This document shows positions 37,898-53,774 of a stretch of 54,187 nucleotides of DNA, one piece after another; position 1 is the stretch's first letter; each line of letters starts with the position of its first letter. Below the pieces are notes generated by a model, which was not told the DNA's origin, did not search any database, and saw only the letters and a program-made list of their open reading frames with translations. This stretch comes from Patescibacteria group bacterium (GTDB lineage Bacteria; Patescibacteriota; Minisyncoccia; JAHIHE01; JAGLIN01): assembly GCA_019428855.1 (NCBI GenBank), contig JAHYJV010000004.1:1-54187 (forward strand), read 5' to 3'. The position numbers and the translations under genes were made by a program.

Positions 37898-39058
37898 TTA
37901 TTTTAGTGCCTCAATCCCTGGCATTTTTTCTCCAGCTAAAAATTCAAGCATTGCTCCACCCCCAGTACAAACATAATCTACCTTATCAAGATATCCAAAC
38001 TGACTAAGGGCTGCAATGGTATCTCCTCCTCCAATTATTTTATATCCCTTTGATTTTACCATGGCTTCCGCAATTTTTCGAGTACCTGATGCAAATTTTT
38101 CATTTTCAAATTTTCCCATCGGACCATTCCAAATAATCATTTTTGAATCCACAATTATTTTTGAAAATAGTTCTTCCGTATCAGGACCGATATCCAGAAT
38201 TCTCTCGTCTCCAATTTTACCCACAGGAGTAAGTTCAACTCTCTTAATTTTTGAATTACAGACAATTACATCAAAGGGAATATACAATTTTTTATTATCA
38301 AGATCTATTTTTTTTGCTTCTTCGGGGTCTATATCGCCAATTAATGACTGACCCGTATCAATTCCCTTGGCTTTCAAAATCACATTTGCTACAACTCCGC
38401 CCACAAGAATATGATTATATTTATCCATAACAAACTTGATTATCGGCAATTTGGTTTCTGCTTTTGCACCTCCGATAATTATTGTCGCTGGTTTCTGGGG
38501 ATTATTTATAGCCTCTGAAAGAATCTTAACTTCTTTTTCCAAAAGAAATCCCGCATAGGATGGCAAAAATTTTGTAATTGCTGAAACGGAAGCATGAGCA
38601 CGATGCGAAACAGAAAAAGCATCGTTGACATAAATGTCAGCACTGCTCGCTAATTTCCTGGCAAACTCTTCATCGTCCTTTTCTTCCTCTTTATAAAATC
38701 GCAAATTTTCCAAAAGTACAATTTCGCCTGCTTGCATTTCATCCACAATTTCCTTCACCATATCTCCGACACAATCTGGAGCTCTCGTCACAGAAAGTTC
38801 AAGCAGTTCTGATAATCTATCTTGCACTGGTCCAAGTTTCATTTCTTCAACCACTTTTCCTTCTGGTCTGCCAAGATGAGCCATCAGAATAATTTTTGCT
38901 TCTTTTTTAAGCAAGTACTGAATCGTCGGCAAAACGGCCTTAATTCTCCAGTCTTCCTTGCCATCCACCACGCCGTCATCTCCCACTGGCACATTAAAAT
39001 CAACCCGCACCAGAACTTTTTTACCTTTTAAATTTTTAATTTCTCTTATTGATTTCAT
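37898..39058 (-). CDS. pgk: Phosphoglycerate kinase
   Basis: 386 aa with VLVRVDFNVP, IIGGAKAETK, WNGPMG(K)FE and GGGDTIAA. Confidence 0.96.
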   Translation of the reverse strand: MKSIREIKNLKGKKVLVRVDFNVPVGDDGVVDGKEDWRIKAVLPTIQYLLKKEAKIILMAHLGRPEGKVVEEMKLGPVQDRLSELLELSVTRAPDCVGDMVKEIVDEMQAGEIVLLENLRFYKEEEKDDEEFARKLASSADIYVNDAFSVSHRAHASVSAITKFLPSYAGFLLEKEVKILSEAINNPQKPATIIIGGAKAETKLPIIKFVMDKYNHILVGGVVANVILKAKGIDTGQSLIGDIDPEEAKKIDLDNKKLYIPFDVIVCNSKIKRVELTPVGKIGDERILDIGPDTEELFSKIIVDSKMIIWNGPMGKFENEKFASGTRKIAEAMVKSKGYKIIGGGDTIAALSQFGYLDKVDYVCTGGGAMLEFLAGEKMPGIEALK

Positions 39059-39654: not shown

Positions 39655-39690
39655 TCAAAAAAAATACCCCACTCATAAAGTAAGGGTATT
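39655..39690 (-). terminator. Intrinsic terminator of the Ehr-like operon
   Basis: The minus strand reads aataccc-(14-nt loop)-gggtatt followed by a T8 run, about 20 nt after the stop of the large-subunit gene. Confidence 0.6.
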
Positions 39691-39710: not shown

Positions 39711-41276
39711 TTATCTGTCGTAACCAGAATAGGAAAGATTAAAACTTTTGTTGATAAGCGGAAAATCGAGTAGTACACTTCCAACTGCAACATGTGGTAA
39801 GACTGACCAATTCAAAAATGATGCGTCGCGAGCTTGAACTCTGCTAATTTTTCCCTCATTATCTGTAGCGACAAAATAGACAATGCTACCCCGCCATCCT
39901 TCAGCAATTCCGATTGCCAAAGAATTTTTCTTGAAATTTGAAATTGAAGAAGTCTTGATTTCTCCTGCTGGCAATTCATTTAAGGCTTGATATATCAAAC
40001 TAAATGAGGAAGACACTTCTTTGACTCGAACCATAAATCTTGCATAAACATCGCCCTCTTTTTCAATTGCAATTGAAAGATTCAACTTTGAATAAGCGGC
40101 ATAGGAAAAATTGATTCTGGCATCAGATAAGATTCCAAGAGCCTTGGCTGAGACACCGCAAACTCCATGATCTTTGGCAATTTGAGAATCCATAGAACCA
40201 GTCCCCTTCAAGCGATTAATCAGCGAACTACTATCTAAAGCAATATTTATAAACTCTTTAAAATCTTTTTCAATTTCTTTTAGTTTAGAAGTTATTTCCA
40301 TTAAATCTGAAATTTCTTTTTTCACACCACCGATTGTGTTCACGCCTCGCAGAAAACGGCTGTCCGTCAATCGTTGATTAATTTGCATAATCATTTCTCT
40401 CAATCTTGCTCCATTACTTCCACCAAAGCTAAACCCAGCATCAAGCATAATAAAACCGATATCGTTGAAGTGATTTGCAATTCTTTCGAGTTCGGCAAAA
40501 ATAACTCGTAAATATTTCGCTCGAAGAGGAGCGGAAATGTCACCTATCAATTCCAAAGATTGACAAAAAGCGAGTGAATGACCGAAAGAACTATCGCCAG
40601 ATATTCTTTCTGAAAGAGCTATTTTCTTTTCCAAGGGCAGAACTTCAAAAAGTTTTTCGCTTCCCTTGTGAGTATAACCCAAAAGTGGTTCAAGATTTAT
40701 TATTTCTTCTCCAAGCATACTGAAGCGGAAATGACCCGGTTCAATTATTCCAGCATGCACTGGACCGACTGGAACTTCATAAATTCCCTCACCTCCAACC
40801 CTCTTAAATCGATGTGATTTTTCATGAGCCATTTCAATTTTTTTATTCCACGGGAAATCTTTTCTCAAAGGAAAAACATTTGCAGGCCAGTTTTCATGCA
40901 AAAGAACTTTTTCTGGATAATAATGACCAACTATCTGAAGTCCGAACATCGTCATAATTTCTCGCTCATACCAAGAAGTTTCATGAATGACCTTTACGAG
41001 TGATGGAAATTCTTCGGTATTTTGCAATTTGAGATATGGAACCAAAAAGAACTTTTCCCCTGGCAATCCAAAGACATAAAAAATTTTAAAAGAGTTATTT
41101 TCTTTTCTTTCGTCTATGGCTGTCATCGTCATTAGAGTCATCTTGTCTGCAAAATAAAGTTTCTGACAAACAGTTTCAATTTCGCTGACAGACACCTCAA
41201 AAAGAAGAAGATTATTTTTCTCTTCTACGGAACTTTGAGTAGGAATATATTTTTCAATTAATTCTTGTTTATTCAT
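39711..41276 (-). CDS. Fused NuoC-like + NuoD/HycE-like large subunit of a group-4-hydrogenase-related complex, lacking all NiFe cysteines
   Basis: 521 aa. The N-terminal half shows a 30-kDa/NuoC-type fold (WYEREIMTMFG). The large-subunit motifs read ERISGDSSFGHSLAFCQSLE (canonical R-x-C-G-x-C) and, at the C-terminus, NLSYSGYDR* (canonical D-P-C-x-x-C-x-x-R). Confidence 0.88.
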   Translation of the reverse strand: MNKQELIEKYIPTQSSVEEKNNLLLFEVSVSEIETVCQKLYFADKMTLMTMTAIDERKENNSFKIFYVFGLPGEKFFLVPYLKLQNTEEFPSLVKVIHETSWYEREIMTMFGLQIVGHYYPEKVLLHENWPANVFPLRKDFPWNKKIEMAHEKSHRFKRVGGEGIYEVPVGPVHAGIIEPGHFRFSMLGEEIINLEPLLGYTHKGSEKLFEVLPLEKKIALSERISGDSSFGHSLAFCQSLELIGDISAPLRAKYLRVIFAELERIANHFNDIGFIMLDAGFSFGGSNGARLREMIMQINQRLTDSRFLRGVNTIGGVKKEISDLMEITSKLKEIEKDFKEFINIALDSSSLINRLKGTGSMDSQIAKDHGVCGVSAKALGILSDARINFSYAAYSKLNLSIAIEKEGDVYARFMVRVKEVSSSFSLIYQALNELPAGEIKTSSISNFKKNSLAIGIAEGWRGSIVYFVATDNEGKISRVQARDASFLNWSVLPHVAVGSVLLDFPLINKSFNLSYSGYDR

Positions 41277-41285
41277 AATTGAGAT

Positions 41286-42740
41286 TTAAGAAAATAATTT
41301 AACAGAATTCAAAATCAAGGATTGTAAAAATGGCGGAATAACAAATCCGATACAGAAGAGAATAATAACAATCATAATCAAAGGGGAAATAGATAAGCCA
41401 TGTTCTTCCTCATTTATAATCCCAGCAGGAACTTCTCCAAAAAGCATAGTAGAAATATGTTTCATAAAACCTACAAAAGCAATTGCCAAACCAATAATTG
41501 CGAATGTCACAATAATAGGATGAGCTGAGATTCCGGCAGAGAGAATATAAAACTCAGTCAGAAATATTCCAAAAGGAGGCATGCCGATTATCGATAATAT
41601 TCCAGCAATAAACAGAATGCTTGTGATTGGTAAAGCAGTTAGAGTTCCTCTGACATCTGCAATTTTGGTTGAATTATATTTCAAAAATATATTTCCAGCA
41701 GAAAGAAAAAGAAGTGATTTAGTAAGAGCATGATATACCATATGAAGTAGTGCCGCATAAATTCCGATTCCACCAAATCCAAAGCCTAAAGTGATAAGAC
41801 CCATGTGTTCGATACTGGAATAGGCCAAAAGCCGCTTATAGTTTTGTGACACCGAAATCATAAACCCAGCGAAAAGAATTGAAATCATACCAAAAAATAA
41901 CATCAGGTTTTGTGTAAATTGCGGATCTATGGAAGTGTCTATCACAATTTTAAAACGCAAAATTGAATAAAGAGCGACATTTAAAAGCACACCAGATAAT
42001 AAACTACTAATTGGAACTGGTGCCTTGGAATGAGCATCAGGAAGCCAGGTATGCATGGGCACCAAGCCCATCTTTGTGCCATAACCAACTAAAAGGAAAA
42101 CGAAAGCAATCTTGATAACCGCAGGATTAAGACTAGAAGATAGTAATAGAATATCCTGCCATGTCACGAATCCCCCAATTGTCTCGTGAAGAGAAATTGA
42201 AGCTAAAAATATTAGCGTTCCCAAGAATGCCAATAGCAACCCAACTGAATTTATAACTAAATATTTCCAAGCTGCCTCAATTGAAGTTTTCTTGCTATAA
42301 AAACTAATTAAAAAAGCTGTTGAAAGAGTTGTTGCTTCAACTGCAACCCACATTAAAATTGGACTGGCAACCTGCACGGCGAATAGCATCGTAAAAAGAA
42401 AAGAGTGCAATAAAATATGATATTGTCGAACGCGACTAAAACCGATAGTCCCATTCTTAACCTCCGCACGCAAATATCCGATAGAATACACTGAAGCTGT
42501 AAAGCCAACGATTGCTATAATTAAAAGTAATATTGCTCCCAAGGAATCAACAAAAAAATATGGTGCCAATGAAGATGAGCCGTTCTCAAGAACAGTATAT
42601 ATTATTTTTGCCACCGTAAAAAATTCAATTACTGTCGCCAATAAAATAATATATTCCAAAAAGACTTGCTGTTTTCGTTTCACGAAAAAAGACGAAATTG
42701 CTGCTATAGCTGGAGTGAGAATAAGAATTAGTATTTCCAT
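41286..42740 (-). CDS. HyfF/NuoN/MrpD-like antiporter-type membrane subunit
   Basis: 484 aa, about 14 TM helices, with HTWLPDAHSKAPVPISSLLSGVLLNVALY. Confidence 0.88.
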   Translation of the reverse strand: MEILILILTPAIAAISSFFVKRKQQVFLEYIILLATVIEFFTVAKIIYTVLENGSSSLAPYFFVDSLGAILLLIIAIVGFTASVYSIGYLRAEVKNGTIGFSRVRQYHILLHSFLFTMLFAVQVASPILMWVAVEATTLSTAFLISFYSKKTSIEAAWKYLVINSVGLLLAFLGTLIFLASISLHETIGGFVTWQDILLLSSSLNPAVIKIAFVFLLVGYGTKMGLVPMHTWLPDAHSKAPVPISSLLSGVLLNVALYSILRFKIVIDTSIDPQFTQNLMLFFGMISILFAGFMISVSQNYKRLLAYSSIEHMGLITLGFGFGGIGIYAALLHMVYHALTKSLLFLSAGNIFLKYNSTKIADVRGTLTALPITSILFIAGILSIIGMPPFGIFLTEFYILSAGISAHPIIVTFAIIGLAIAFVGFMKHISTMLFGEVPAGIINEEEHGLSISPLIMIVIILFCIGFVIPPFLQSLILNSVKLFS

Positions 42741-42760: not shown

Positions 42761-43417
42761 TTAATCTTGCAATTTTTTTATTTCAGAAATGTTAAGAGAG
42801 CCAAAATTTTTATAAACCATTGAGATAAACACTACCGCAATCACAATCCAAACAGAAATATCAAAAAGAATACCAAGCTCGAGAACCAAAGTCTGTTTAA
42901 TTTCAATCAAAAAGGCAAAAGAGATAATACTATTTTCAAGATAAAGTATACCAATAATTTGAGAAAGCGCTCCGCGTCGATTGATTATCAAAAAAATTGA
43001 AGATAAAATACTTGCTATGGCAAACGGAATGGTCTTGTCCACTTTTTCTGACAGAGAAATGAGAACCTCAAAAACAGATGAATTGGCAAAAATCACAATA
43101 AACATCACAACGAAGAGAGTGACAGGAGTAGAAAGATATGAACTTGCTGATGATTTTACTTGATTATTATTAATCAGCTTCAAAAAGAAACGAGGTGCGA
43201 TAATGACTTTTACCAAAAACATAATGATGGCCGTTACAAGAAGAGTAATTGAAGATTCGGAATAGGAAATTAAAATCAGCATCAAAAAAACCACCGTAGA
43301 TTGAAGAAGATAGAACAAAACAAGATTCTTGTTTTTCTTTACCATCTGCGAAAAAACAACAATCAAGAATATGATAATTTCGGCAAAAAATAGAAATTGT
43401 AGAATTGAATAATCCAT
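42761..43417 (-). CDS. HyfE-like small membrane subunit
   Basis: 218 aa, about 7 TM helices. Size and position match HyfE of hydrogenase-4-type operons. Confidence 0.7.
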   Translation of the reverse strand: MDYSILQFLFFAEIIIFLIVVFSQMVKKNKNLVLFYLLQSTVVFLMLILISYSESSITLLVTAIIMFLVKVIIAPRFFLKLINNNQVKSSASSYLSTPVTLFVVMFIVIFANSSVFEVLISLSEKVDKTIPFAIASILSSIFLIINRRGALSQIIGILYLENSIISFAFLIEIKQTLVLELGILFDISVWIVIAVVFISMVYKNFGSLNISEIKKLQD

Positions 43418-43426
43418 ATATCTTAT

Positions 43427-44356
43427 TTAAATTACGGTTATTATAATGGCAATCATCCCCAAAACAAGTGAGGTCAAAAGCAAATCTGGAAGTCGAAAAA
43501 ATCTCAATTTCGCAATGGTTGATTCAAGGACAGCGATGCTTACTGCCATGACTAATATTTTTATCAAAAATAAAATCAAAGCAATCGCAACTGGCACGAT
43601 TTCAACATTTTGAGCAATTCCCCAAGGGAAAAATATACTTGTTCCTAAAGAAATAAAGATCAGAAGCTTGTTAGCCGCTGCCCACTCAACGAGTGCCAAT
43701 CTTTTTCCGGAATATTCCAAAATCATTGCTTCATGAATCATAGTCAGTTCAAGATGAGTAGCAGGATTATCAAATGGATATCGAGCACATTCCGCCAAAA
43801 GAGCAATATAAAAAGCAATAAATGCGATTACAACTGGTGCCAACATAGAGAATGGAACAACGGAAATAGCGTTGACCATTTCAGAAATATTGGCAGTTTT
43901 GGCAAGTAAAGCAACTGAGAACAACGAAAATATTAATCCACCTTCAGTCAAAGCAGCCACAGTCATTTCTCGGCTTGATCCCGTTCCCCCAAAAACACTT
44001 CCTGTATCCAAGCCAGCCAAGGCCAAGAAAAAAGTTCCAAGAGCAATCAAATAAACAAAGAGTAAGAAATCGCCCAAAGGAGAAAAAGTTGCCATGGTGC
44101 TGATCATCGGGATACCAGCTGAAATGACAATTGTGACGGCAAACAAAAGATATGGTGTGTAGCGAAAAATCCAAGAAGCAGTTTCAGAAATTACTTCATC
44201 CTTATGGAACAATTTCCAAAGATCACGATATGGCTGAAAAATACTCGCTCCTTGACGATTCTGAAATCGCGCTTTTATTTTTCTGATAATACCAACAATT
44301 AAAGGAGAAAGTCCCGGAATTAAAAGTGCTTGAAATATAAATAGTATGATTGACAT
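43427..44356 (-). CDS. HycD/HyfC/NuoH-like membrane subunit
   Basis: 309 aa, polytopic, with RKIKARFQNRQGASIFQPYRDLWKLF (typical NuoH/HycD N-terminal loop) and ECARYPFDNPATHLEL. Confidence 0.85.
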   Translation of the reverse strand: MSIILFIFQALLIPGLSPLIVGIIRKIKARFQNRQGASIFQPYRDLWKLFHKDEVISETASWIFRYTPYLLFAVTIVISAGIPMISTMATFSPLGDFLLFVYLIALGTFFLALAGLDTGSVFGGTGSSREMTVAALTEGGLIFSLFSVALLAKTANISEMVNAISVVPFSMLAPVVIAFIAFYIALLAECARYPFDNPATHLELTMIHEAMILEYSGKRLALVEWAAANKLLIFISLGTSIFFPWGIAQNVEIVPVAIALILFLIKILVMAVSIAVLESTIAKLRFFRLPDLLLTSLVLGMIAIIITVI

Positions 44357-44360
44357 TTTT

Positions 44361-46397
44361 TTATCGAGTTACCAAAATAAGTAAAATCACAATTGTGATA
44401 AGGATATATAAAAGATAAAAATTAACAATACCACATTGAATCCTCCTTAAGAAATTTGCAATTTTATATACAAAATTACTAATAGGACAATATAAATATT
44501 TGTTATATAGGTCATTCATTCTTAAACTAACAGTACTAGATTTGGTAAAATATTTTATATTTGAATCGTCATATTCTCTGTTAATTTGTTTAGTAGGTTT
44601 CAAAATTCCACTAAAAATCATTACGATTGACCTTGAAAAACTGGTTGCTGTAATTTCCATTCGTGGGGTTAGATTCCCTCCACAATCCCAAGTTGAATAA
44701 ATTTTTTCTTTCTGTCTTCGACTAATCCAATTAAAGAAAATAAATGAGAATACAAAAGTAAGAAGCAATGCTATTAAAACTGGAATTATTGCCAGAGAAG
44801 AAGAATTATTCTGTGTATGGAAAGTTATTCCTTCAACCAATACAAGCGAAATACCAGCAAAAATACTCAGACTTCCAGCAAGAGATTCCAAATATGGGAT
44901 TACGAAAATAGAAAATACTCCCAAGGCAAGACATGCCAAGGAAAGAACAGCCATTGGTAAACGAAGTAAAAGTGATGATTCTTTGGCATTTTCACTTTTT
45001 TGACTTCGCGGTTTTGCCAAAAAAGTAATTCCAAAGGCCTTCACGAAACAAGCAGCAGCAAGCCCACCTGTCAAAGCAAGAGATGCAATGCCAAAAATAA
45101 AAACACCTTTTGTAAAAATATCAAACTGCATCACTCCTAAAAAAAGAGCTTGAAAAGTCAGCCACTCGCTTACAAATCCATTAAAAGGAGGAAGAGCTGA
45201 AATTGAAATAGCACCTACTAGGAAAAATAAAGCTGTCTGAGGCATTATTTTTATCAATCCTCCGTATTCTTCAATATTTCTTGTACGAGTTGCGAGCACA
45301 ACTGAACCTGCCCCCAAGAAAAGGAGAGACTTGAAAATGGCATGATTCATCGTATGAAATAAAGCAGCGACCAAAGCTAGTAATGCGAGTGATTTCAAAT
45401 CAAAAGACAAAAATACCAAAGAACTACCAACGCCTAACAGAATTATACCGATATTTTCAACGCTGTGATAAGCAAGTAATTTTTTAATATCATGCTCACT
45501 AATGGCATAAAGAACTCCAAGAAGAGAAGAAATAGCACCGACAATAATAATCAACAATCCAAACCATAGAGGTGTAATTGGAATAACATCAAAGAATAAT
45601 CTTATCAGCATCAAAATTCCTGTTTTAATCATCACTCCAGACATAATCGCTGAAACTTGAGATGGTGCTGCTGGGTGAGCCTTCGGAAGCCAAATATGCA
45701 AAGGAATGATTCCAGCCTTAGTTCCAAATCCTGCTAACATCAGTAAAGATACAATCGAAATCCAAAAAGATGGCAAGCTTGAAACATTTTCGCGAATTAC
45801 ATCAAAATCAAAAGATCCTAAAAAGCTATACAAAATTAAAAAAGCTAACAGTATTCCACCTGTAGCAATATGTGTCATAATAAAATATAAAAATCCAGCC
45901 TTGATACTCTCCTTATGTTTATGTTCAAAAATCACGAGAAAATATGAAGTCAAGGACATAATTTCCCAAACAAAAAGGAAATATAAAGCATTGTTCGCCG
46001 ATGCGACCAAAATCATGCTCAAAATAAAAAAATTATAAAAAAACCCGAATAAACCGAGATTGTATTCTTTATAAAATTGTCTCATATAACCAATTGCATA
46101 AATACTGCTCAAAAGAGAAACTACGGAAATTATCAAAATAAAAAAAGCAGAAAGCATATCGATTTTCACATTGACTGGCAATAGTGAAAAAGTTAAGGGC
46201 AATTGCAAAGTATAAATATTATTATATAGCAAAACATTTCCGGATAATAAAATTCCAAATAATGAGCCAAGAGCAGCACAGGAATTTGCCCACCAGTTTG
46301 CCATATTATTATTTCGCCGAAAAAGAAGTGAGCCAATTGAACCCAGGACGAAAATTCCAGCTAAAATAAAAAATTCTTTTTGTAGTAATAGACCCAT
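44361..46397 (-). CDS. HyfB/HycC/NuoL-like antiporter-type membrane subunit
   Basis: 678 aa with HIWLPKAHPAAPSQVSAIMSGVMIKTG. Confidence 0.88.
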   Translation of the reverse strand: MGLLLQKEFFILAGIFVLGSIGSLLFRRNNNMANWWANSCAALGSLFGILLSGNVLLYNNIYTLQLPLTFSLLPVNVKIDMLSAFFILIISVVSLLSSIYAIGYMRQFYKEYNLGLFGFFYNFFILSMILVASANNALYFLFVWEIMSLTSYFLVIFEHKHKESIKAGFLYFIMTHIATGGILLAFLILYSFLGSFDFDVIRENVSSLPSFWISIVSLLMLAGFGTKAGIIPLHIWLPKAHPAAPSQVSAIMSGVMIKTGILMLIRLFFDVIPITPLWFGLLIIIVGAISSLLGVLYAISEHDIKKLLAYHSVENIGIILLGVGSSLVFLSFDLKSLALLALVAALFHTMNHAIFKSLLFLGAGSVVLATRTRNIEEYGGLIKIMPQTALFFLVGAISISALPPFNGFVSEWLTFQALFLGVMQFDIFTKGVFIFGIASLALTGGLAAACFVKAFGITFLAKPRSQKSENAKESSLLLRLPMAVLSLACLALGVFSIFVIPYLESLAGSLSIFAGISLVLVEGITFHTQNNSSSLAIIPVLIALLLTFVFSFIFFNWISRRQKEKIYSTWDCGGNLTPRMEITATSFSRSIVMIFSGILKPTKQINREYDDSNIKYFTKSSTVSLRMNDLYNKYLYCPISNFVYKIANFLRRIQCGIVNFYLLYILITIVILLILVTR

Positions 46398-46403
46398 AGA
46401 TTT

Positions 46404-46940
46404 TTATTTCTTTTCAGACTCCCTCTCTAGCGATTTTAAAATTTCCAGTAATGCGCACAACACTCTTTTGGGAGATGGGGGGTCTCCAGGAATTTGAAAA
46501 TCAACTGGAATTACTTTTTCTACTCCGTCCATAACCGCATATGATCCTTTGAAAATTCCGCCATCAATCGCATCGTCCCCTACTGCCACTACAAATTTGG
46601 GCTCAGGCGTGGCTTCATATGTCTTCCGAAGAGCAACTGCCATATTTCGAGAAACAGGTCCCGTTACCAAAAGCATATCTGCATGTCTAGGTGAAGCAAC
46701 AAAATGAATTCCAAATCGTTCGACATCATAGAAAGAATTCCCAAGCGCTGTCAGCTCCTGTTCGCAAGCATTAGAAGAGCCGGCATCAACTTCTCGAATA
46801 GCAAGAGAACCACGAAACAATTTCTTTATTTTTTCGCTCAATTCCTTACTGATAAGCTTGATATCCTTTTCCTTATACAAATCTTCCGGCATAATCAATG
46901 TCTTCGGATTAGAAAAAGTTTTTATATAAAGACTTGGCAT
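46404..46940 (-). CDS. NuoB/HycG-like small subunit lacking three of the four [4Fe-4S] cysteine ligands
   Basis: 178 aa with ERFGIHFVASPRHADMLLVTGPV. The ligand motifs read DAGSSNACE (canonical GSCNGC), VGDDAIDGG (canonical G-x-C-A-x-x-G-G) and IPGDPPSP (canonical PGCPP). Confidence 0.88.
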   Translation of the reverse strand: MPSLYIKTFSNPKTLIMPEDLYKEKDIKLISKELSEKIKKLFRGSLAIREVDAGSSNACEQELTALGNSFYDVERFGIHFVASPRHADMLLVTGPVSRNMAVALRKTYEATPEPKFVVAVGDDAIDGGIFKGSYAVMDGVEKVIPVDFQIPGDPPSPKRVLCALLEILKSLERESEKK

Positions 46941-47406: not shown

Positions 47407-47563
47407 TATTTAATCTAAAATCCATGCAGCGGATTAGAAGGGTTTTGCATGTGTGTGGCATAAGCATAAGTTATAAAGTTAAAAGCTTGTAAAGTTATAA
47501 AGTTTTGTTAAAATTATAACAATCAATTTCAATAAATTTCTACTAATTTCCACAAATTTCATT

Positions 47564-49621
47564 CTATCCCGCTCCTCCTCCGCCACCACCTGCTCCACCA
47601 CCCGCTCCTCCGCCACCACCAGAAGCACCACTGGCGCCAGAACTGGAAATTGCGCTGTAAAATGAAGATGCAAAGCTAGCACTGAAAGCGGAAGAAGAAA
47701 ATGCGGAAGAATAAAATGAAGATGCCATATTTGTGGCTCCGACATACCAAGACGGCCGAGGAACATTCATCGATTCAAACGCCTTTGCCCATTTTTTCTC
47801 TACTCCAAAAATCATAGCATAAGGCAAATATTTCTCAAAATATTCTGGTTTTAAATTCTGCATCCTGTATTTTTCCGCCGTTTCCAAATACATCTTAAAT
47901 CCCAGCCAGTCTTCTTTGAGTTTTATTCCTTTGTCAGACAAGCGAGCTTCGTATTTGATGAAAGCGTAGAGAAATCCAATACTTACAATTCCTGTTGTTA
48001 TTAAAAAAAGTAATTGACTTATTCCAAAATTTAATCCTATAAGCATGTAAATAATATAAAATGGAAAGAAAAATATTTTCCAAAGTTTTGTTTTCTTTTT
48101 TTCTATTGTTAATCCAGTTTCAAAAGCTTTCGTGTCTAATTCAACTTCTTTATATATTTTATCTTTAATTTTTAATATTTTTTCATATAACACTCTTGCA
48201 TTTACTCTATCTTTCTTTAATTCTTCTGTAGAAAAATATTCTTTATTGTCAAAAAGCACATCTAAATATTTTCTTTCATAATCTTCAAGATTAGAAGCAC
48301 TTTCATATAGTTTGGCTTTTTTTATAATATAATTAACATATCTCTTTTCGGTTCTTTTAAGTGATATTAATAAAGTAAAAAGCATTAATAATACGGGTAA
48401 AATTAAAGAAAGAAAAAAGAAGATTTCTTTATATAAAGATAGGAACAATAAAAGTAAAAATAAAATTATAGCAAAAGGCAATATTAAAAAAAATAATATG
48501 AATGTCTTTATTAAATGACGCTCTCTGACTTTAGAGTTCAATTCAGGAACTTCCTCAATTCTCACATACCCCCTCACCGCCAGATCAACAATCGTCGCCG
48601 TTAAACCTTTATTTGTTAATCTTTCCTTTATAATAACTTCCGCCATGGCGGGCTTCAGATTTTGAGGCGGTTCATATTGCGGAACAATCGCACGCTTTCC
48701 TTCTCTTGATCTTTCCGTTTTATACCAATGGTAAAATCCATAAATAACCGCGCTGATAAATATCAAAATTGATAAAATATAGCCGTAATACATAAAAAGA
48801 AAATCTTTGAAATACGAGCCTTGACTGACAATGCCTTTTGGAAATCCTACGGCAACCGTAAAGTTTGTATTCGGCCTTATATTCCTTCCCCAAAATATTG
48901 CTTCGGTATTATCTTGATTAAAGTAATATCCGCCAGAAGATATCGGGTTAAATTCCGCTCCGTAAGAAAGAGGCAGTGCCTCGTTCCTACCGTCATTTAT
49001 ATCCCAATCGTCCATCCTCTCAGATAAGGGGAGGATAGGTGTGGTTTGAAAAATCGGGCTGGGAATATCCTCCGCATAAAGCCAAATCAGATCTTTATTA
49101 AATTTCTCTCCATTTTCCAAGCTTATTGTAACTTTCACATTCTGAATCGCGACATCCCTGACACTTGGTATTGCATTCCAATAAATTTCATCATAGTTTT
49201 TCAAAAAACTTATTCCACCATGAACTTTATATTTCACCGTCCAGCTTTTTTCTTCCTGATCAAAGTCCCGCCTCGCGAAATTCCACTGAATATACTTTGC
49301 ACCGTTTTTTAAATTTATAAACAGTTGGATTTTGGGGATTTTATTATTATCCCCGTCAAAAACTTCAATGTCCGTGATAGCATCTATCTTATTTAAAGAA
49401 ACATTGCGATTTACAAAACCAAAATTGCCATCAAAAAAATAAGTCTGTTTTTCTGTGACATCAAAAGTTGAGTCTTGGTTTATTTTTATATCAACTTCAA
49501 AATCTTTGTAATAATATTCTTTGGCGAAGGAAGTTTTGACATTAAAACAAAAAATAAAAACTATACTTACTACAAATAATAATTTATATATTTTCATATT
49601 TTTATTTATAAAATATTTCAT
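47564..49621 (-). CDS. DUF2207-like membrane protein with a Gly/Ser/Ala-rich C-terminal tail
   Basis: 685 aa with a signal peptide, a large extracytoplasmic domain, several TM helices and a tail ...SSGASGASGGGGGAGGGAGGGGGGAG. This architecture is typical of DUF2207. Confidence 0.75.
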   Translation of the reverse strand: MKYFINKNMKIYKLLFVVSIVFIFCFNVKTSFAKEYYYKDFEVDIKINQDSTFDVTEKQTYFFDGNFGFVNRNVSLNKIDAITDIEVFDGDNNKIPKIQLFINLKNGAKYIQWNFARRDFDQEEKSWTVKYKVHGGISFLKNYDEIYWNAIPSVRDVAIQNVKVTISLENGEKFNKDLIWLYAEDIPSPIFQTTPILPLSERMDDWDINDGRNEALPLSYGAEFNPISSGGYYFNQDNTEAIFWGRNIRPNTNFTVAVGFPKGIVSQGSYFKDFLFMYYGYILSILIFISAVIYGFYHWYKTERSREGKRAIVPQYEPPQNLKPAMAEVIIKERLTNKGLTATIVDLAVRGYVRIEEVPELNSKVRERHLIKTFILFFLILPFAIILFLLLLFLSLYKEIFFFLSLILPVLLMLFTLLISLKRTEKRYVNYIIKKAKLYESASNLEDYERKYLDVLFDNKEYFSTEELKKDRVNARVLYEKILKIKDKIYKEVELDTKAFETGLTIEKKKTKLWKIFFFPFYIIYMLIGLNFGISQLLFLITTGIVSIGFLYAFIKYEARLSDKGIKLKEDWLGFKMYLETAEKYRMQNLKPEYFEKYLPYAMIFGVEKKWAKAFESMNVPRPSWYVGATNMASSFYSSAFSSSAFSASFASSFYSAISSSGASGASGGGGGAGGGAGGGGGGAG

Positions 49622-49877: not shown

Positions 49878-50882
49878 TTATAACTCCTTCCCCACAAACT
49901 CTGCCATTTCCACAAATCGATTCGTATATCCGAATTCATTATCATACCATGCCAAAACCTTCACTAAATTACCATCCACTTTTGTCAGTGGTAAATCCAC
50001 GATTGAGGAAAACGAATTGCCTTTATAATCAACAGAAACCAACGGTTCGATAGTCACATTGATTACTCCCAAAGTGTCCTCATCACTCGCTTTTTGGAAA
50101 AGTGCATTCACTTCTTCAACGGTCGTATCTCTTTTGACAACTGCTGTAAAATCAACAATCGAAACTGTGGAAGTTGGCACACGCATGGCCATTCCATCAA
50201 GTTTGCCATTCAATTCTGGAATTGCTTCTGTGGCGGCAACTGCTGCACCAGTTGTGGTTGGAATTATACTAATGGCTGCTGCTCGTGCCCGACGCAAATC
50301 CTTATGAGGTAAATCCAAAATCCTCTGATCGTTTGTGTAACTATGCACCGTGGTCATAAAACCTTTTTCAATTCCGAGATTATCATTCAAAACTTTGACT
50401 ACTGGTGCCAAGCAATTAGTTGTGCAAGATCCATTAGAAACGATATTATCCTTGCTTGAGTCATAATCAAATTCATTTACTCCTAAAATCAATGTTTTGA
50501 TATTTCCACCCTTGCAAGGAGCACTGATGACAACTTTTTTTGCTCCCGCTTTCAAATGTTTTTCTGATCCTTCTACGGTAGTGAAAAATCCTGTACATTC
50601 CAAAACAACATCTACTTCCAATTCTTTCCACGGCAAAAGTTCCGGATCTTTTTGTGCAAAAACTTTGATTTTTTTTCCATCAACGATGATATGTTCCTCA
50701 TTAAATGAAACTTCTTTTTCATACTTTCCATAATTGGAATCATATTGTAATAAATGCGCCAAAGTTTTTGTGTCAGTTAAATCATTAACAGCCACAACTT
50801 CAAGATTTGGATGTTTGTCTAAAATCACTTTTAGAGCCGGTCTTCCAATTCGACCAAAACCATTAATTGCAATTTTTGTCAT
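49878..50882 (-). CDS. gap: Glyceraldehyde-3-phosphate dehydrogenase, type I
   Basis: 334 aa with INGFGRIGR, the active site SCTTNCLAP, and WYDNEFGY. Confidence 0.96.
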   Translation of the reverse strand: MTKIAINGFGRIGRPALKVILDKHPNLEVVAVNDLTDTKTLAHLLQYDSNYGKYEKEVSFNEEHIIVDGKKIKVFAQKDPELLPWKELEVDVVLECTGFFTTVEGSEKHLKAGAKKVVISAPCKGGNIKTLILGVNEFDYDSSKDNIVSNGSCTTNCLAPVVKVLNDNLGIEKGFMTTVHSYTNDQRILDLPHKDLRRARAAAISIIPTTTGAAVAATEAIPELNGKLDGMAMRVPTSTVSIVDFTAVVKRDTTVEEVNALFQKASDEDTLGVINVTIEPLVSVDYKGNSFSSIVDLPLTKVDGNLVKVLAWYDNEFGYTNRFVEMAEFVGKEL

Positions 50883-51652: not shown

Positions 51653-51787
51653 TTATAGAAACATTACTATGGATTATTTTTATATTTTATCACAATTTAA
51701 TCAAAATAACCAATTTTGCAAAATTTAAAATTGTGCTATAATATTCTTATATTAACAAATCTTACGATAAATATCCAAATAAAAATC

Positions 51788-52762
51788 ATGAATGATAAAC
51801 AACTGCGAGGCTTCGTTTCATATCTTATCAAAAATAAACATACCGTATTTTCTCATACAGACGAAGAAGGGAAAATCAAGATAAAAAAAATAGATACTGG
51901 AAAAGATTTTACGCTTTGTCCTAAAAGACCTCTGTATTCTTTCAAAAAATTCTTTCTTCCACCCTGCCAAAAAATGATGGTTTTAAGCGATGACGAGACA
52001 ACCTTAAACAGAAATCCAAATGAAAAAATAGTTCTACTTGGGCTTCATTTTTATGATCTCAAAGCATTTACACTTATTAATCAAGTATATAGGAAGGATC
52101 CTCATTTTCAGAAAAAATTGAGAAATGCGATTGTTATCGGTCAAAGTCCAATTCCAGCTGAGCTTGAAGATTACCAAAAATTTGAAAAAGAAGTTCTCGA
52201 ACATCTCAAATTTGATATTTTTCTGGAAGCAAAATCTCACGGAAAGCAAGAATCATTCCGAATTTTTACAGGTTCAGAAGATGGACAAAGACTTTTGGAT
52301 GATTTTGGATATAGAGATTATGAAAATATTGAATATGTCGGCCCTGTTCCCAAAAAAGGTCTGGGACCAATTAATTCCATGCTAATTGAAAAAATCAAAA
52401 AATCTTGTGGTTCAAAAATTTGGAAAGAATTAGGGGAAAAATGTACTGATTGTGGAAAATGCACAATTGTTTGTCCGACTTGTTTTTGTTTTAAAATCAA
52501 GGATGAAATTAAAAAAGACGAAATCCTACGCTCTCGCGAATGGGACAGTTGTTTTTATGAGGAATTTTCCGAAATTTCAGGAGGACATAAATTTCTTGAT
52601 ACAACTGAGAAGAGAATTTATAATTATTACGACCATAAGTTTGTCAGAATACCAGAGGAATATGGAATGCCTGGGTGTATTTCGTGTGGAAGATGTACAG
52701 AGGTTTGCCCAGCAGGAATTGACATTAGAGCAGTTATAAAAAGGATTATCAAAGAGAATTAA
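51788..52762 (+). CDS. Iron-sulfur subunit, HydB (group-3b hydrogenase beta)/AsrA-like
   Basis: CTDCGKCTIVCPTCFC and CISCGRCTEVCPAGI are present. Start placed at ATG 51788 (MNDKQLRGF...), because the track's TTG 51716 extension is a low-complexity leader. Confidence 0.78.
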   Translation: MNDKQLRGFVSYLIKNKHTVFSHTDEEGKIKIKKIDTGKDFTLCPKRPLYSFKKFFLPPCQKMMVLSDDETTLNRNPNEKIVLLGLHFYDLKAFTLINQVYRKDPHFQKKLRNAIVIGQSPIPAELEDYQKFEKEVLEHLKFDIFLEAKSHGKQESFRIFTGSEDGQRLLDDFGYRDYENIEYVGPVPKKGLGPINSMLIEKIKKSCGSKIWKELGEKCTDCGKCTIVCPTCFCFKIKDEIKKDEILRSREWDSCFYEEFSEISGGHKFLDTTEKRIYNYYDHKFVRIPEEYGMPGCISCGRCTEVCPAGIDIRAVIKRIIKEN

Positions 52763-52952
52763 TTCGAGCAAATAACTGGAGTTCAGTTTTTAACCTGTAA
52801 AAAACTATTTTCTTACAATCGATTTACAATCTAAAAAGTGAACTCCGAAATAAGATAATTTAGTATAACAATGGCGATGTTAATCCTCTTGCAAGATTAC
52901 CACTAATAACATCTGTCTTAATATTGCCAATATTAATATCATAAAAATCTGC

Positions 52953-53774
52953 ATGAAAAATCAATACGAACCAATTCAAACCGAGATTGTGAAAATTGAA
53001 GAACTTTCACCTATTAATAAGCTTTTTACACTAAGAATTAAAAACGAGCAGACTCAAAATGCATTCAAGTTTCGACATGGACAATTTTTTATTCTTTCCG
53101 TTCCAGGGTTTGGCGAAGCTCCTTTTGGTTTTTGCTCAAGCCCGACAATCAAAGAAACTTTTCAAGTGTCCGTGGACAAGAGAGGAAGTCTGACTACAAA
53201 GCTTTTTGAGTTCAAAGTGGGAGCTGATATTGGAATCAGAGGTCCTTATGGTAATGGCTTTGATCGGAAAAAAATCAAAAACAGAAATCTCGTTCTCGTA
53301 GCTGGTGGATGCGGACTCTCCCCTCTGAGAACAATTATCCAAGATGCCAATCTTCATCCTGAAAATTTTCAAAATATTCAAATTTTTTATGGTTGTCGGA
53401 ATTCAGAACTCTTGGCATTCAAAAAAGATTATACTGATTGGAGTAAAAATATCGAAATAAATCTGACAGTCGATACACCAGACAAAAAATGGAAAAACAA
53501 TGTTGGCGTGGTCACAAATTTACTAACTCTAGAAAAAATCAAATCTGATTCCGTGGCAATTCTAGTCGGTCCGCCAATAATGTATAAGTTCGTCATTCAA
53601 AAACTGGTTGAACTTGGCTTGAGTGATGAGGACATCTATGTTTCACTGGAACGAAGAATGCATTGTGGGATTGGAATCTGTCAACATTGTGCCCTTGTCG
53701 GCGGAAAATATGTTTGCACCGATGGTCCCCTATTTTCCTATGCTGAGATTAAAGATACTCCTGAAGGGATTTAG
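52953..53774 (+). CDS. FAD/NAD(P)-binding [2Fe-2S] subunit, HydG (group-3b gamma)/AsrB/PyrK-like
   Basis: 273 aa with RHGQFFILSVPGFGEAPF, LVAGGCGLSPL and a C-terminal MHCGIGICQHCALVGGKYVCTDGP cluster motif. Confidence 0.82.
   Translation: MKNQYEPIQTEIVKIEELSPINKLFTLRIKNEQTQNAFKFRHGQFFILSVPGFGEAPFGFCSSPTIKETFQVSVDKRGSLTTKLFEFKVGADIGIRGPYGNGFDRKKIKNRNLVLVAGGCGLSPLRTIIQDANLHPENFQNIQIFYGCRNSELLAFKKDYTDWSKNIEINLTVDTPDKKWKNNVGVVTNLLTLEKIKSDSVAILVGPPIMYKFVIQKLVELGLSDEDIYVSLERRMHCGIGICQHCALVGGKYVCTDGPLFSYAEIKDTPEGI

Follow-up and report, generated by a model that had tools for sequence, protein, structure and literature searches.

A conserved NuoB-like subunit without the proximal-cluster ligand set in a six-gene Ehr-type operon of a Patescibacteria group bacterium

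In the window, i.e., the whole 54,187-nt stretch of DNA from this ultra-small (CPR) bacterium that was analyzed, the gene for a NuoB/HycG/EhrS-like small subunit (B; 178 aa, positions 46404..46940) heads a tight operon of six minus-strand genes in the order B–HyfB–HycD–HyfE–HyfF–NuoCD, with intergenic gaps of 4–20 nt. It is followed by a HyfB/NuoL-like antiporter subunit with an ND3-like C-terminal extension (678 aa, 44361..46397), a HycD/NuoH-like membrane anchor (309 aa, 43427..44356), a HyfE-like membrane subunit (218 aa, 42761..43417), a HyfF/NuoM/N-like antiporter subunit (484 aa, 41286..42740), and an EhrL/HycE-like large subunit in which NuoC and NuoD are fused (CD; 521 aa, 39711..41276). 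The HyfE-like protein shows only a weak NuoK/MrpC-like match (PF00420) and falls below the cutoff of the NCBIfam HyfE model NF008556. A terminator-like hairpin with a T-run (39667..39685, minus strand), 26 nt past the large-subunit stop, lies at the operon end; an Rfam scan of the window returned no matches. The subunits are those of Ehr complexes, an abbreviation reportedly expanded as energy-converting or Ech-hydrogenase-related, for a class attributed to Coppi in 2005 and said to have been defined by Marreiros et al. in 2013.

The small-subunit ORF is read from 46940 to 46404, the plus-strand frame being riddled with stops, and the 178-aa start was preferred over the 162-aa database call (P0001) because K7 and other N-terminal residues are kept in homologs. 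Its sole Pfam domain is PF01058 (Oxidored_q6; 89 bits against a gathering cutoff of 27, E = 2.6e-25), and the Pfam scan found no NuoI/Fer4 domain. Among the NCBIfam models, only the subfamily-level NuoB model NF005012 was exceeded (127 vs. 116); the TIGR01957 cutoff was not reached (114.6 vs. 142.7), and the protein stayed far below every cutoff of the NuoB equivalog models. The structure predicted from a 48-sequence alignment (mean pLDDT 59) resembles the fold of PSST, MbhJ and NuoB, with target-normalized Foldseek TM scores of 0.7–0.8 for this moderate-confidence model. Since AlphaFold pLDDT drops below 50 precisely at the former cluster loops (residues 53–75 and 124–136), the model was used for the fold only and not for pocket geometry.

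The ligand columns of the proximal [4Fe-4S] cluster were set by pairwise HMMER alignment to two proteins of solved structure, E. coli HycG (7z0s_G, E = 6.8e-29) and P. furiosus MbhJ (6cfw_J, E = 1.8e-28). The canonical CxxC aligns with S56 (minus-strand codon 46773..46775) and C59 (46764..46766, minus), the third ligand with D123 (46572..46574, minus), where G-x-C-A-x-x-G-G reads G-D-D-A-I-D-G-G, and the fourth with D153 (46482..46484, minus), where P-G-C-P-P reads P-G-D-P-P; C59 is the sole ligand-column Cys left. The family hallmarks and cluster motifs quoted in a first-pass annotation of this DNA are all present in the translation, among them VDAGSSNACE (51–60), AVGDDAIDGG (119–128), IPGDPPSP (150–157) and ERFGIHFVASPRHADMLLVTGPV. 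Its placement of C59, D123 and D153 in the ligand columns stands, whereas S55, which it had listed as the first position, is the equivalent of the conserved Ser in G-S-C-N-G-C, and the true column is S56. In homologs, position 56 is mostly Thr, also Ser or Asp, and roughly 10% of the cluster-less relatives have Glu at position 59; D153 never varies among the nearest homologs or the CPR loci, and a few cluster-less sequences farther off have Asn there. Further acidic residues (D52, E60, D122 and D126) flank the former cluster site. Only two cysteines, C59 and C162, occur in the entire small subunit, which therefore holds no alternative Cys ligand set.

The query and its 120 nearest database homologs display the ligand-column patterns TCDD (104), SCDD (12), TEDD (4) and SEDD (1), with D123 and D153 in 121/121 sequences. 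At least three of the four ligand cysteines are missing in 80/80 metagenome loci, and six cluster-less small subunits contain no Cys anywhere in the protein. Repeated across homologs and metagenome loci, the pattern is thus neither chance nor a sequencing error. Across CPR orthologs, both Asp codons are in use at D123 (GAC 6, GAT 4) and at D153 (GAT 6, GAC 6). B is the best-conserved of the six cassette subunits, averaging 69% identity, with 37% of its columns invariant vs. 13–31% in the other five, and identity across CPR classes amounts to 63–82%. Judged by these comparisons, the cluster-less small subunit is a state under purifying selection and not decay, in line with the functional shift, as opposed to random decay, proposed in the first-pass annotation.

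In a pooled alignment made up of cluster-less sequences only, the four-Cys ones having dropped out, at least two of the four ligand columns carry Asp or Glu in 200/203 cases, and G123 goes together with E59 in 12/13 (a raw count that ignores kinship); the carboxylate apparently alternates between positions 123 and 59. Two diverged representatives, with the patterns TCGN and SVGN, have no carboxylate at the four columns. Because some relatives lack Cys at the ligand columns and six proteins lack it altogether, a cubane cluster in the small subunit is very unlikely.

In the large subunit, the NiFe Cys columns opposite the HycE cysteines are occupied by S226, S229, S515 and G518, and the L1 (RxCGxC) and L2 (DPCxxC) motifs are replaced by ERISGDSSFGH and NLSYSGYDR. 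The C-terminal maturation extension is missing, the protein ending in GYDR where HycE has CTDR and 32 more residues. Its Ehr signature motifs are common to 24 other large subunits from genome loci. Y467 occupies the position of a His in four-Cys Ehr lineages; this His, in EGWRGxxxH, has changed convergently to Tyr, Phe or Cys in both cluster-less lineages and is Tyr in 29/31 metagenome loci. The operon contains no ferredoxin-type gene (HycF/EchF/MbhN), nor does such a gene recur near the 31 metagenome cassettes with full-length B and CD, whose neighbors vary. Without NiFe cysteines and without a NuoI/HycF domain or gene, the whole three-cluster wire is therefore missing. The co-occurrence with Cys-less large subunits, a question raised by the first-pass annotation, extends to every CPR cassette in which both subunits are present (nine genome-scan loci plus L001, and 31/31 metagenome loci).

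The only well-conserved cysteines of the entire complex are B-C59, L-C450, L-C572 and CD-C238, and on sequence grounds the peripheral arm is without a conserved Cys set able to hold a cluster. CD-C238 was considered as a new ligand partner of C59 and rejected, as four-Cys Ehr lineages have it too. The organism itself can make Fe-S and NiFe sites: the window encodes two subunits (beta and gamma) of a group 3b hydrogenase 4.8 kb from the cassette, and the full hydrogenase operon with HypA adjoins the cassette in a close relative. As a partner of the complex, this hydrogenase was discarded, its adjacency being restricted to the window's lineage (L027/L028). Adjacency to ATP synthase was likewise set aside: it is present at L001 and absent in the other loci checked, and the atpF of the window lies 39 kb away.

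Across Ehr, the typical small subunit is a NuoB-like protein fused with a NuoI-like 2x[4Fe-4S] domain (PMC6349859, Supplementary Note 4). Four small-subunit cysteines together with the fused 2x[4Fe-4S] domain were found in Verrucomicrobia and Vicinamibacteria, short four-Cys small subunits in Elusimicrobia and Acidimicrobiaceae, and a Fer4–PF01058 fusion in the loci L012, L015, L017 and L018, while the NiFe cysteines are missing in every Ehr lineage examined. As every Ehr lineage examined lacks the NiFe cysteines and many still have the four cluster cysteines, the NiFe loss is old and family-wide and the cluster loss later and nested within it, contrary to the coordinated loss of both sites suggested by the first-pass annotation. 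Nor is the proximal cluster strictly universal in the family, as had been assumed there: when representatives of the 150 nearest 50%-identity clusters were aligned with MAFFT --auto, the ligands were missing from about 25. Cluster loss is recurrent, with approximately 12–16 Fitch changes, and small subunits with the patterns SAES (P0152) and DAAD (P0123) are 85% and 77% identical, respectively, to four-Cys relatives. One genome (L096) encodes both a cluster-less B and a Fer4-fused four-Cys B beside two cassettes, and mixed assemblies may form there. The recurrent loss, the apparently independent loss in Methanospirillum and the convergent His change in the large subunit point to an Fe-S cluster that is dispensable for the core function of Ehr; such repeated dispensability would in turn indicate that this core function is redox-independent, and the view of Ehr would have to be revised.

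In the HyfB/NuoL-like subunit, E145, K227, H234, K258, H348, K356, E411 and C572 are conserved in 12/12 CPR orthologs, as are E135, K223 and K341 in the HyfF-like subunit, where E396 is found in 11/12 and N254 stands in place of NuoM K265. The HycD/NuoH-like anchor carries the Ehr-wide ND1-loop motif DNPATHLELTMIHEAM (43724-43771, minus strand), and Ehr with and without the cluster do not differ in this motif or in 16 charged residues of the subunit. The absence of two Glu from the ND1 loop (FDNPATHLEL vs. FDLAEAEQEL in HycD) was considered as a correlate of cluster loss and rejected, since the motif is Ehr-wide and also occurs in four-Cys lineages. The β1–β2 loop VPVGPVHAGIIEPGHFRF is invariant and is the same in Ehr lineages still holding the cluster. 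The PSST/NDUFS7 coupling loop FVASPRHAD (46677..46703, minus strand) is nearly invariant and aligns with the HycG stretch containing residues 69–80, which are defined as the HycG coupling loop (PMC9474812). Taken together, these alignments show an intact set of ion-translocation residues in both antiporter-like subunits and of E-channel charges in the anchor, along with intact β1–β2 and PSST loops and an intact ND3-loop Cys.

Since the cofactor sites are lost and the complex is nevertheless tightly conserved, it most likely moves ions without electron transfer. We consider it probable that the operon encodes a CPR-specific six-subunit Ehr without any redox cofactor, in which the small subunit was kept and which works as a redox-independent ion translocator. 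The small subunit would have given up electron transfer and been retained for both structure and coupling, acting jointly with the large subunit as cap and gate of the hydrophilic chamber over the NuoH-like anchor. A conserved pair of carboxylates would occupy the cavity left by the cluster, namely D153 together with D123, or with E59/D56 where position 123 is Gly; the pair could take part in a network of hydrogen bonds or salt bridges, or be the binding site of a proton or a hard cation. The geometry of the pair is putative, as it falls in loops that AlphaFold models poorly (pLDDT below 50). The whole complex may then act as an Mrp-like secondary cation/proton exchanger that manages pH, Na+ and membrane potential in a fermentative, ATPase-dependent CPR cell. 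In the literature, the role of Ehr is called unknown, and the activity of any Ehr complex has never been demonstrated (10.1101/765248).

Some points weigh against this redox-independent translocator. A purely secondary antiporter would have no obvious use for a peripheral arm of 700 residues, which Mrp does without, and a pocket that has gained a new ligand or metal could account equally well for the very strong conservation of B. MrpB/E/F/G-type Na+-module subunits are absent from the six-gene cassette. A more far-reaching proposal, which we put forward tentatively and judge improbable, is that the former [4Fe-4S] pocket has become a carboxylate proton/cation site that triggers or gates translocation, the CPR and Methanospirillum Ehr being redox-dead relatives of complex I in which the coupling apparatus is complete, from the peripheral arm and the PSST, β1–β2, ND1 and ND3 loops to the E-channel and two antiporter-like subunits. 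If true, the complex I-type trigger would have been swapped from the arrival of an electron to the binding of an ion or ligand.

The alternative that survives best, although we regard it as rather doubtful, is that the pocket forms a mononuclear metal or cation site (e.g., Ca2+, Mg2+, Na+, Mn2+, Fe2+ or Zn2+), and thus a gained non-redox function and not a passive cap; D153, D123/E59, C59 and T/S/D56 would serve as ligands, and the site would sense, gate or drive translocation. The invariance of D153 and D123 among the nearest homologs, the near-constant presence of at least two carboxylates, one of which apparently moves to 59 where Gly occupies 123, the acidic neighbors of the site, the standing of B as the best-conserved subunit, and the all-oxygen patterns TEDD and SEGD, which fit hard cations, are consistent with such a site. 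However, the ligand set varies among independent cluster-less lineages (DADN, SAES, TCGN, SVGN, SEAN), the pocket model is of low confidence, the small subunit matched no metal-dependent family in the Pfam and NCBIfam scans, and the carboxylates may merely stand in for the bulk and charge of the cluster. The carboxylate-ligated metal site entertained in the first-pass annotation thus gains some support from the carboxylate count and the apparent 123/59 swap and otherwise stays where it was.

Far less probable is an unconventional Fe-S cluster, held by one Cys together with Asp, Asp and Ser or Thr, that exchanges electrons with ferredoxin or with the group 3b hydrogenase. Single Asp, His or other non-Cys ligands of [4Fe-4S] clusters are known, the proximal cluster of MBS has three Cys (PMC7684303), and the hydrogenase lies near the cassette in the window and adjoins it in L027/L028; however, this neighbor is limited to one lineage, and the complex offers electrons neither a ferredoxin-type domain for entry nor an acceptor site in the large subunit. 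At most one ligand Cys is left, and related cluster-less lineages have Glu, Ala or Val in its place; six proteins are Cys-free, and Thr, the usual residue at position 56, is a poor ligand. To our knowledge, no natural cubane has three O-ligands. Finally, although CPR genomes are reduced and every catalytic cofactor ligand is gone, the idea that the cassette is what remains of a Hyf-type hydrogenase, non-functional and in decay, carries almost no weight and is effectively refuted by six intact ORFs in fixed order in 33/33 complete metagenome cassettes, invariant catalytic membrane residues, synonymous codon variation at the conserved Asp positions, the identity maintained across CPR classes, and the tight operon with its terminator.

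All mechanistic models of the complex I superfamily start from redox chemistry at the proximal cluster or next to it, and the conformational and electrostatic changes set off there are presumed to spread through interface loops into the membrane arm. The Ehr described here is a widespread and strongly conserved member of this superfamily in which the loops, E-channel and antiporter residues are kept, and the cluster, the NiFe site and the electron entry domain are gone. If it is active, either the peripheral module works without electron transfer, by structural gating in an Mrp-like manner, or another trigger has replaced the redox step. CPR bacteria, which are otherwise without electron transport chains, gain an energy-related membrane complex with it. 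Cultured Methanospirillum has the cluster-less state too and thus brings biochemical and structural tests within reach.

Among known systems, the subunit set of the window matches that of Ehr in Geobacter sulfurreducens (GSU0739-45), Margulisbacteria, Elusimicrobia and Verrucomicrobia: HyfB-like, NuoH-like, HyfE-like, HyfF-like, NuoC–NuoD fusion and NuoB-like (PMC6349859, PMC7894505). The Cys-less large-subunit motifs E[RS][IV]SGD and KSFNLSY.G.D[LR] and the ND1-loop motif DNPxTHLELTMIHEAM are also shared with other Ehr; in contrast, their small subunit is typically a NuoI(Fer4)–NuoB fusion or a short four-Cys NuoB, whereas that of the window lacks both Fer4 and the cluster Cys set, and the gene order is B-first in the window and B-last in theirs. 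CPR large subunits without NiFe-binding cysteines were described as a monophyletic group within Ehr by Jaffe et al. 2020 (PMC7304191), and the window complex very probably belongs to this clade. That study deals with the large subunit only and does not mention the small-subunit Fe-S ligands, the missing ferredoxin domain or the antiporter subunits. Thus, the Cys-less CPR large subunit was already reported in 2020, and for the small-subunit ligand loss no paper was found in a full-text literature search, the Ehr-defining Marreiros et al. 2013 lying outside its reach.

The 'Pmh' operon of Methanospirillum (Mhun_1817-1822; Anderson et al. 2009, PMC2686161) and its orthologs in M. purgamenti and M. 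stamsii (L016, L019) are six-gene cassettes in the order L–H–E–N–CD–B with a Cys-less large subunit, and their small subunit, with D-A-D-N in the ligand columns and no Fer4 domain, is likewise cluster-less. Unlike the window, this cassette is archaeal and B-last; its B is only 56–61% identical, has Asn at position 153 and Ala at position 59, and carries two Cys outside the ligand columns, in columns 53 and 125. Homologs in the genetically tractable Methanosarcina acetivorans and M. mazei are mentioned in PMC2686161.

E. coli formate hydrogenlyase/hydrogenase-4 (PDB 7Z0S) is the best structural homolog for four window subunits, matching through HycG (E = 6.8e-29), HycE (1.5e-67), HycC (3.1e-76) and HycD (1.2e-49). 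The NuoC–NuoD fusion, the ND3-like extension and all four coupling loops are common to both (PMC9474812), but the NiFe site, the proximal cluster G1, HycF, HycB and FdhF of formate hydrogenlyase are all five absent from the window, which has additional HyfE- and HyfF-like subunits and keeps the TM7 Lys that is lost in HycC. MBS of Pyrococcus furiosus (PDB 6U8Y) shows reduced ligation, with two of four NiFe cysteines lost and a three-Cys proximal cluster (PMC7684303); it is nevertheless redox-driven with three [4Fe-4S] clusters, whereas the window has at most one ligand Cys and no ferredoxin subunit. Mrp (CPA3; PDB 6Z16 and 7QRU) operates redox-independently with NuoL/M/N-type subunits, and MrpA and MrpD match both antiporter-like window subunits significantly. 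Mrp has MrpB/C/E/F/G, which the window lacks, and is itself without the NuoB/NuoD/NuoH peripheral module that the window has; the two share the same Glu/Lys set, the TM5 Glu, TM7 Lys and TM12 Glu/Lys of Mrp being present in the window as E145/K227/E411 and E135/K223/E396, in 11–12 of 12 orthologs.

The small subunit gene, B, is an ORF of 178 codons at 46404-46940 on the minus strand; the plus-strand frame of the same positions is interrupted by stops. Its product matches Pfam family PF01058 (NADH:ubiquinone oxidoreductase 20 kDa / hydrogenase small subunit; E 2.6e-25), and among solved structures it matches E. coli HycG (7z0s_G, E 6.8e-29) and P. furiosus MbhJ (6cfw_J, E 1.8e-28) best, with dozens of complex I PSST/NuoB chains ranking next. 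A public gene call for B (P0001, 162 aa) begins at Met17, leaving out window 46893-46940; since residues 1-16 (K7 and others) are conserved in homologs, the sequences support the upstream ATG at 46940 as the true start of a 178-aa product. Residue-by-residue alignments place A53-G-S-S56-N-A-C59 opposite C-G-G-C-N-G-C of HycG and S-G-S-C-N-G-C of MbhJ, D123 opposite the Cys of G-A-C-G/P...GG, and D153 opposite that of P-G-C-P-P. The proximal-cluster cysteines of both references thus lie over S56, C59, D123 and D153, bearing out the cluster motifs and replaced ligand columns reported in the first-pass annotation. The change of state in B is confirmed, with one residue corrected: the first ligand is indeed replaced, but by S56 rather than S55, which is the conserved Ser preceding the first Cys. 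The position of every key codon was verified. Only two cysteines, C59 and C162, occur in the whole protein.

B belongs to a set of six genes in tandem on the minus strand, with intergenic gaps of 4-20 nt and a terminator-like hairpin 26 nt past the last stop. Domain models identify a HycD/NuoH-like anchor (H, 309 aa, 43427-44356), a HyfE-like subunit (E, 218 aa, 42761-43417) and a HyfF/NuoM-like antiporter subunit (N, 484 aa, 41286-42740), Pfam and NCBIfam models a HyfB/NuoL-like antiporter subunit (L, 678 aa, 44361-46397), and domain models together with a HycE alignment a fused NuoC-NuoD large subunit (CD, 521 aa, 39711-41276), all on the minus strand. None of the six operon genes encodes a ferredoxin-type (NuoI/HycF) subunit. 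The identical cassette and gene order recur at genome loci L001 and L003-L011 wherever the contig is long enough (L006 ends after the start of L), at L027-L030, and, among the matches listed, in 33 of 33 metagenome loci holding just the six cassette genes. Neighbours vary by locus (ATP synthase, group 3b hydrogenase, amine oxidases, glycolytic genes), and only 3 of 31 metagenome loci have a ferredoxin-like ORF within 1.5 kb of the cassette. The six genes form a unit of their own. On an 868-kb CPR contig (L001:17306-20546), an F-type ATP synthase operon (atpI, a, c, b, delta, alpha) follows the cassette after 119 bp, an adjacency seen at none of the other loci checked.

The window has a GC content of 32.7% and no Rfam family above gathering score across 1-54187. 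It also carries an ATP synthase b subunit at 474-971, while pgk (37898-39058) and gapdh (49878-50882), both glycolytic, lie on either side of the cassette region. Upstream of the operon lies the gene of a DUF2207 membrane protein (47564-49621, minus strand) whose C-terminal tail is rich in Gly, Ala and Ser (…SSGASGASGGGGGAGGGAGGGGGGAG); a long, probably spurious ORF (47479-47766) overlaps it in a different frame. Toward the window end, 51716-53774 on the plus strand encodes group 3b-type [NiFe] hydrogenase beta (2x[4Fe-4S], Fer4_22) and gamma (NAD_binding_1 plus DHODB_Fe-S_bind) subunits. At L027/L028 a full group 3b operon that includes a canonical small subunit of 256 aa, the large subunit and HypA adjoins the cassette, and a relative with such a complete operon and HypA beside its cassette has a B 80% identical to the window's. 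The host is therefore able to mature NiFe and Fe-S cofactors.

The large subunit aligns to E. coli HycE over residues 24-521, nearly its full length (E 1.5e-67). Its four NiFe Cys columns hold S226, S229, S515 and G518 (ERISGDSSFGH; NLSYSGYDR), and it ends at the HycE cleavage point, thus without a maturation extension. The L-like subunit keeps the equivalents of HycC E135 (E145), K239 (K258), H222, H328, K336 and E391 (E411), residues whose roles are taken from PMC9474812; the ND3-loop Cys537 of HycC corresponds to C572, and TM7 carries K227 where HycC has Leu. The N-like subunit keeps the equivalents of NuoM E144, K234 and E407, with K265 replaced by Asn, and each of these L-like and N-like residues is kept in 11 or 12 of 12 CPR orthologs. 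Residues 1-296 of the 309-residue anchor align to HycD (E 1.2e-49), and 16 anchor charged residues and the ND1-loop motif DNPxTHLELTMIHEAM are identical between cluster-retaining and cluster-less Ehr lineages. The ND1 (TM5-6) loop (residues 196-211, window 43724-43771) reads DNPATHLELTMIHEAM, whereas HycD has DLAEAEQEL-QEG; the replacement of two loop glutamates and insertion of three residues mark every Ehr lineage, whether or not it retains the cluster. The beta1-beta2 coupling loop VPVGPVHAGIIEPGHFRF is invariant in all Ehr, and the PSST loop FVASPRHAD of B is nearly so. Well-conserved cysteines in the entire complex are limited to B-C59, L-C450, L-C572 and CD-C238, the last present in four-Cys lineages too. 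[quoted passage not shown]

The 120 nearest homologs of B in a search space of 5.8 billion proteins share 66-82% identity with it, and their named hosts are Paceibacterota, Parcubacteria, Magasanikbacteria or Patescibacteria. At positions 56, 59, 123 and 153, these homologs and the query read TCDD (104), SCDD (12), TEDD (4) or SEDD (1), with no variation at D123 and D153. Of the first 600 pattern matches listed in a metagenome scan, at least 541 were relatives; at least three of the four ligand cysteines are absent from B in all 80 loci kept from these matches, six of which encode a Cys-free protein. Among 12 CPR orthologs compared, D123 is encoded by GAC (6) and GAT (4), and D153 by GAT (6) and GAC (6), so both amino acids are kept by selection despite synonymous divergence. 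B is also the most conserved of the operon proteins: its orthologs average 69% identity with the query and 37% of its columns are invariant, whereas the other five proteins reach 45-63% and 13-31%, respectively. B is under strong purifying selection, and the earlier proposal of a functional shift instead of random decay stands.

A genome scan for cassettes yielded 24 loci, 23 of which have an Ehr-type large subunit (motifs E[RS][IV]SGD and KSFNLSY.G.D[LR]) without NiFe cysteines; the exception, L026, is a true NuoB. Three states of B were found. In Verrucomicrobia and Vicinamibacteria (L012, L015, L017, L018) it has 290-345 aa, combining Fer4 and PF01058 with all four Cys, in agreement with the NuoI-NuoB fusion given for typical Ehr (PMC6349859 Supplementary Note 4). 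In Elusimicrobia and one Acidimicrobiaceae MAG it is short (162-185 aa), without Fer4 but with four Cys, and its motif GDCAI[DN]CG resembles the CPR motif GDDAIDGG most closely. In CPR (T/S/D-C-D-D) and three Methanospirillum genomes (D-A-D-N) it is short and the ligands are absent. As the large subunits lack NiFe cysteines across all three states, NiFe loss is placed as ancestral to Ehr and Fe-S loss as secondary. The first-pass interpretation is therefore only partly supported: with four-Cys B proteins beside Cys-less large subunits in other Ehr, the two losses were sequential and recurrent, not coordinated.

Of the 150 top-ranking representatives at 50% clustering, ~97 are C-C-C-C and ~25 ligand-less (SEGD, NEGD, DADN, DAAD, DVDD, SAES, ECED, TCGN and others). 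In a rough neighbour-joining tree of B (~117 columns, ligand columns masked), the CPR proteins form one clade and other cluster-less forms are dispersed among four-Cys relatives, with 15 state changes by Fitch parsimony (12-16 over eight bootstrap replicates). The homologs P0152 (SAES) and P0123 (DAAD) are 85% and 77% identical to the four-Cys P0179 and P0124, respectively. Recurrent loss of the cluster within Ehr is hard to avoid, which suggests that the core function of Ehr in general is not cluster-dependent.

Two MAGs labelled Syntrophales and Deltaproteobacteria (L009, CAZTLA010000002.1; L011, JAPLJX010000087.1) carry CPR-type, B-first cluster-less cassettes (B identity 63-66%), either as misbinned CPR contigs or through lateral transfer out of CPR; in L009 the L and N genes are split, possibly by frameshifts. 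A 322-kb metagenome contig, Ga0209417_1000050 (L096:3381-17978), holds two tandem cassettes in the order divergent L-H-N-CD, CPR-type B (T-C-D-D) with its own L-H-E-N-CD, and a 254-aa Fer4-fused four-Cys B, which looks as if a CPR-type cassette had been inserted between CD and B of a typical Ehr operon. Cluster-less and Fer4-fused four-Cys B are thus able to coexist in one genome, and the two forms might mix in assemblies.

We compared columns for those that are fixed in four-Cys lineages but differ in CPR and Methanospirillum alike. In B, only the ligand columns qualified; in the large subunit there were two positions, the clearer being Y467 (window 39876-39878) in EGWRGxxx[H], which aligns to HycE APRGDDIHW. 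This residue is His in 11 of 12 four-Cys lineages (L012 has four Cys and Tyr), Tyr in 10 of 10 CPR loci, Phe or Cys in Methanospirillum, and Tyr in 29 of 31 metagenome cassettes among the matches listed. This convergent change at 467 accompanies cluster loss, and the His may contact the cluster. At least two Asp/Glu occupy the four former ligand positions in 200 of 203 non-redundant cluster-less sequences. Gly123 is paired with Glu59 in 12 of 13 cases (Fisher p ~2e-13, kinship ignored), which looks like a carboxylate shifting place within the pocket. Two diverged representatives, TCGN and SVGN, depart from this pattern. The AlphaFold model of B is unreliable at the pocket.

The complex very probably contains no Fe-S cluster and transfers no electrons. 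B would be retained for structure and coupling, as part of the cap above the anchor subunit, with a carboxylate pair replacing the cluster as a polar network or as a proton/cation site. When the NiFe site and proximal cluster of E. coli FHL are damaged, the interface loops become disordered and the membrane arm is released (PMC9474812); the pocket therefore matters for assembly, which would explain the strong conservation of the replacement residues. The complex probably moves ions independently of redox chemistry, in the simplest case as a cation/proton exchanger of the Mrp type. Its assignment as a secondary antiporter is possible but tentative; the reading that combines this role with the absence of cluster and electron transfer is, as a whole, rather likely. 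No activity has been demonstrated for Ehr. The alternative that the pocket is a specific site for a metal or cation, acting as a sensor or driver, would fit the carboxylate pattern and its extreme conservation, but the ligand sets are inconsistent between independent lineages, and we regard it as unlikely. An Fe-S cluster with unconventional ligands is very improbable given Thr at position 56, Glu, Ala or Val at 59 in relatives and the Cys-free family members; the lowest Cys ligation known in the family is three, in MBS (PMC7684303). A decaying relic is contradicted by the conservation data and is scarcely credible.

By its sequences, the cassette belongs to Ehr, described as the Ech-hydrogenase-related cluster of Geobacter (EhrA, EhrC, EhrL, EhrS; PMC7894505) and, as cited in PMC6349859, as the complexes that Marreiros et al. 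2013 termed "energy-converting hydrogenase-related". Ehr as a kind and the Cys-less CPR large subunit are already published: in Jaffe et al. 2020, CPR large subunits that lack the metal-binding cysteines form a monophyletic clade within Ehr, the small subunit lying outside that analysis (PMC7304191). Anderson et al. 2009 described a six-gene operon of Methanospirillum hungatei (Mhun_1817-1822) whose large subunit lacks NiFe cysteines, with homologs in Methanosarcina, and did not discuss the small subunit (PMC2686161). In the literature searched, which excludes the defining paper of Marreiros et al. 2013, no account of proximal-cluster ligand loss in the Ehr small subunit was found, and we could not find a description of a variant in which the Fe-S wire is fully absent and all coupling elements are kept. 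The cultured Methanospirillum purgamenti and M. stamsii (L016:3343-10426, L019:3343-10435, L020) have an Ehr cassette whose B likewise lacks the four ligand Cys (D-A-D-N), with two Cys at other columns (VDCGSDNAAEI; VGDDACTGG). The cluster-less state is common in groundwater CPR and shared with cultured Methanospirillum.
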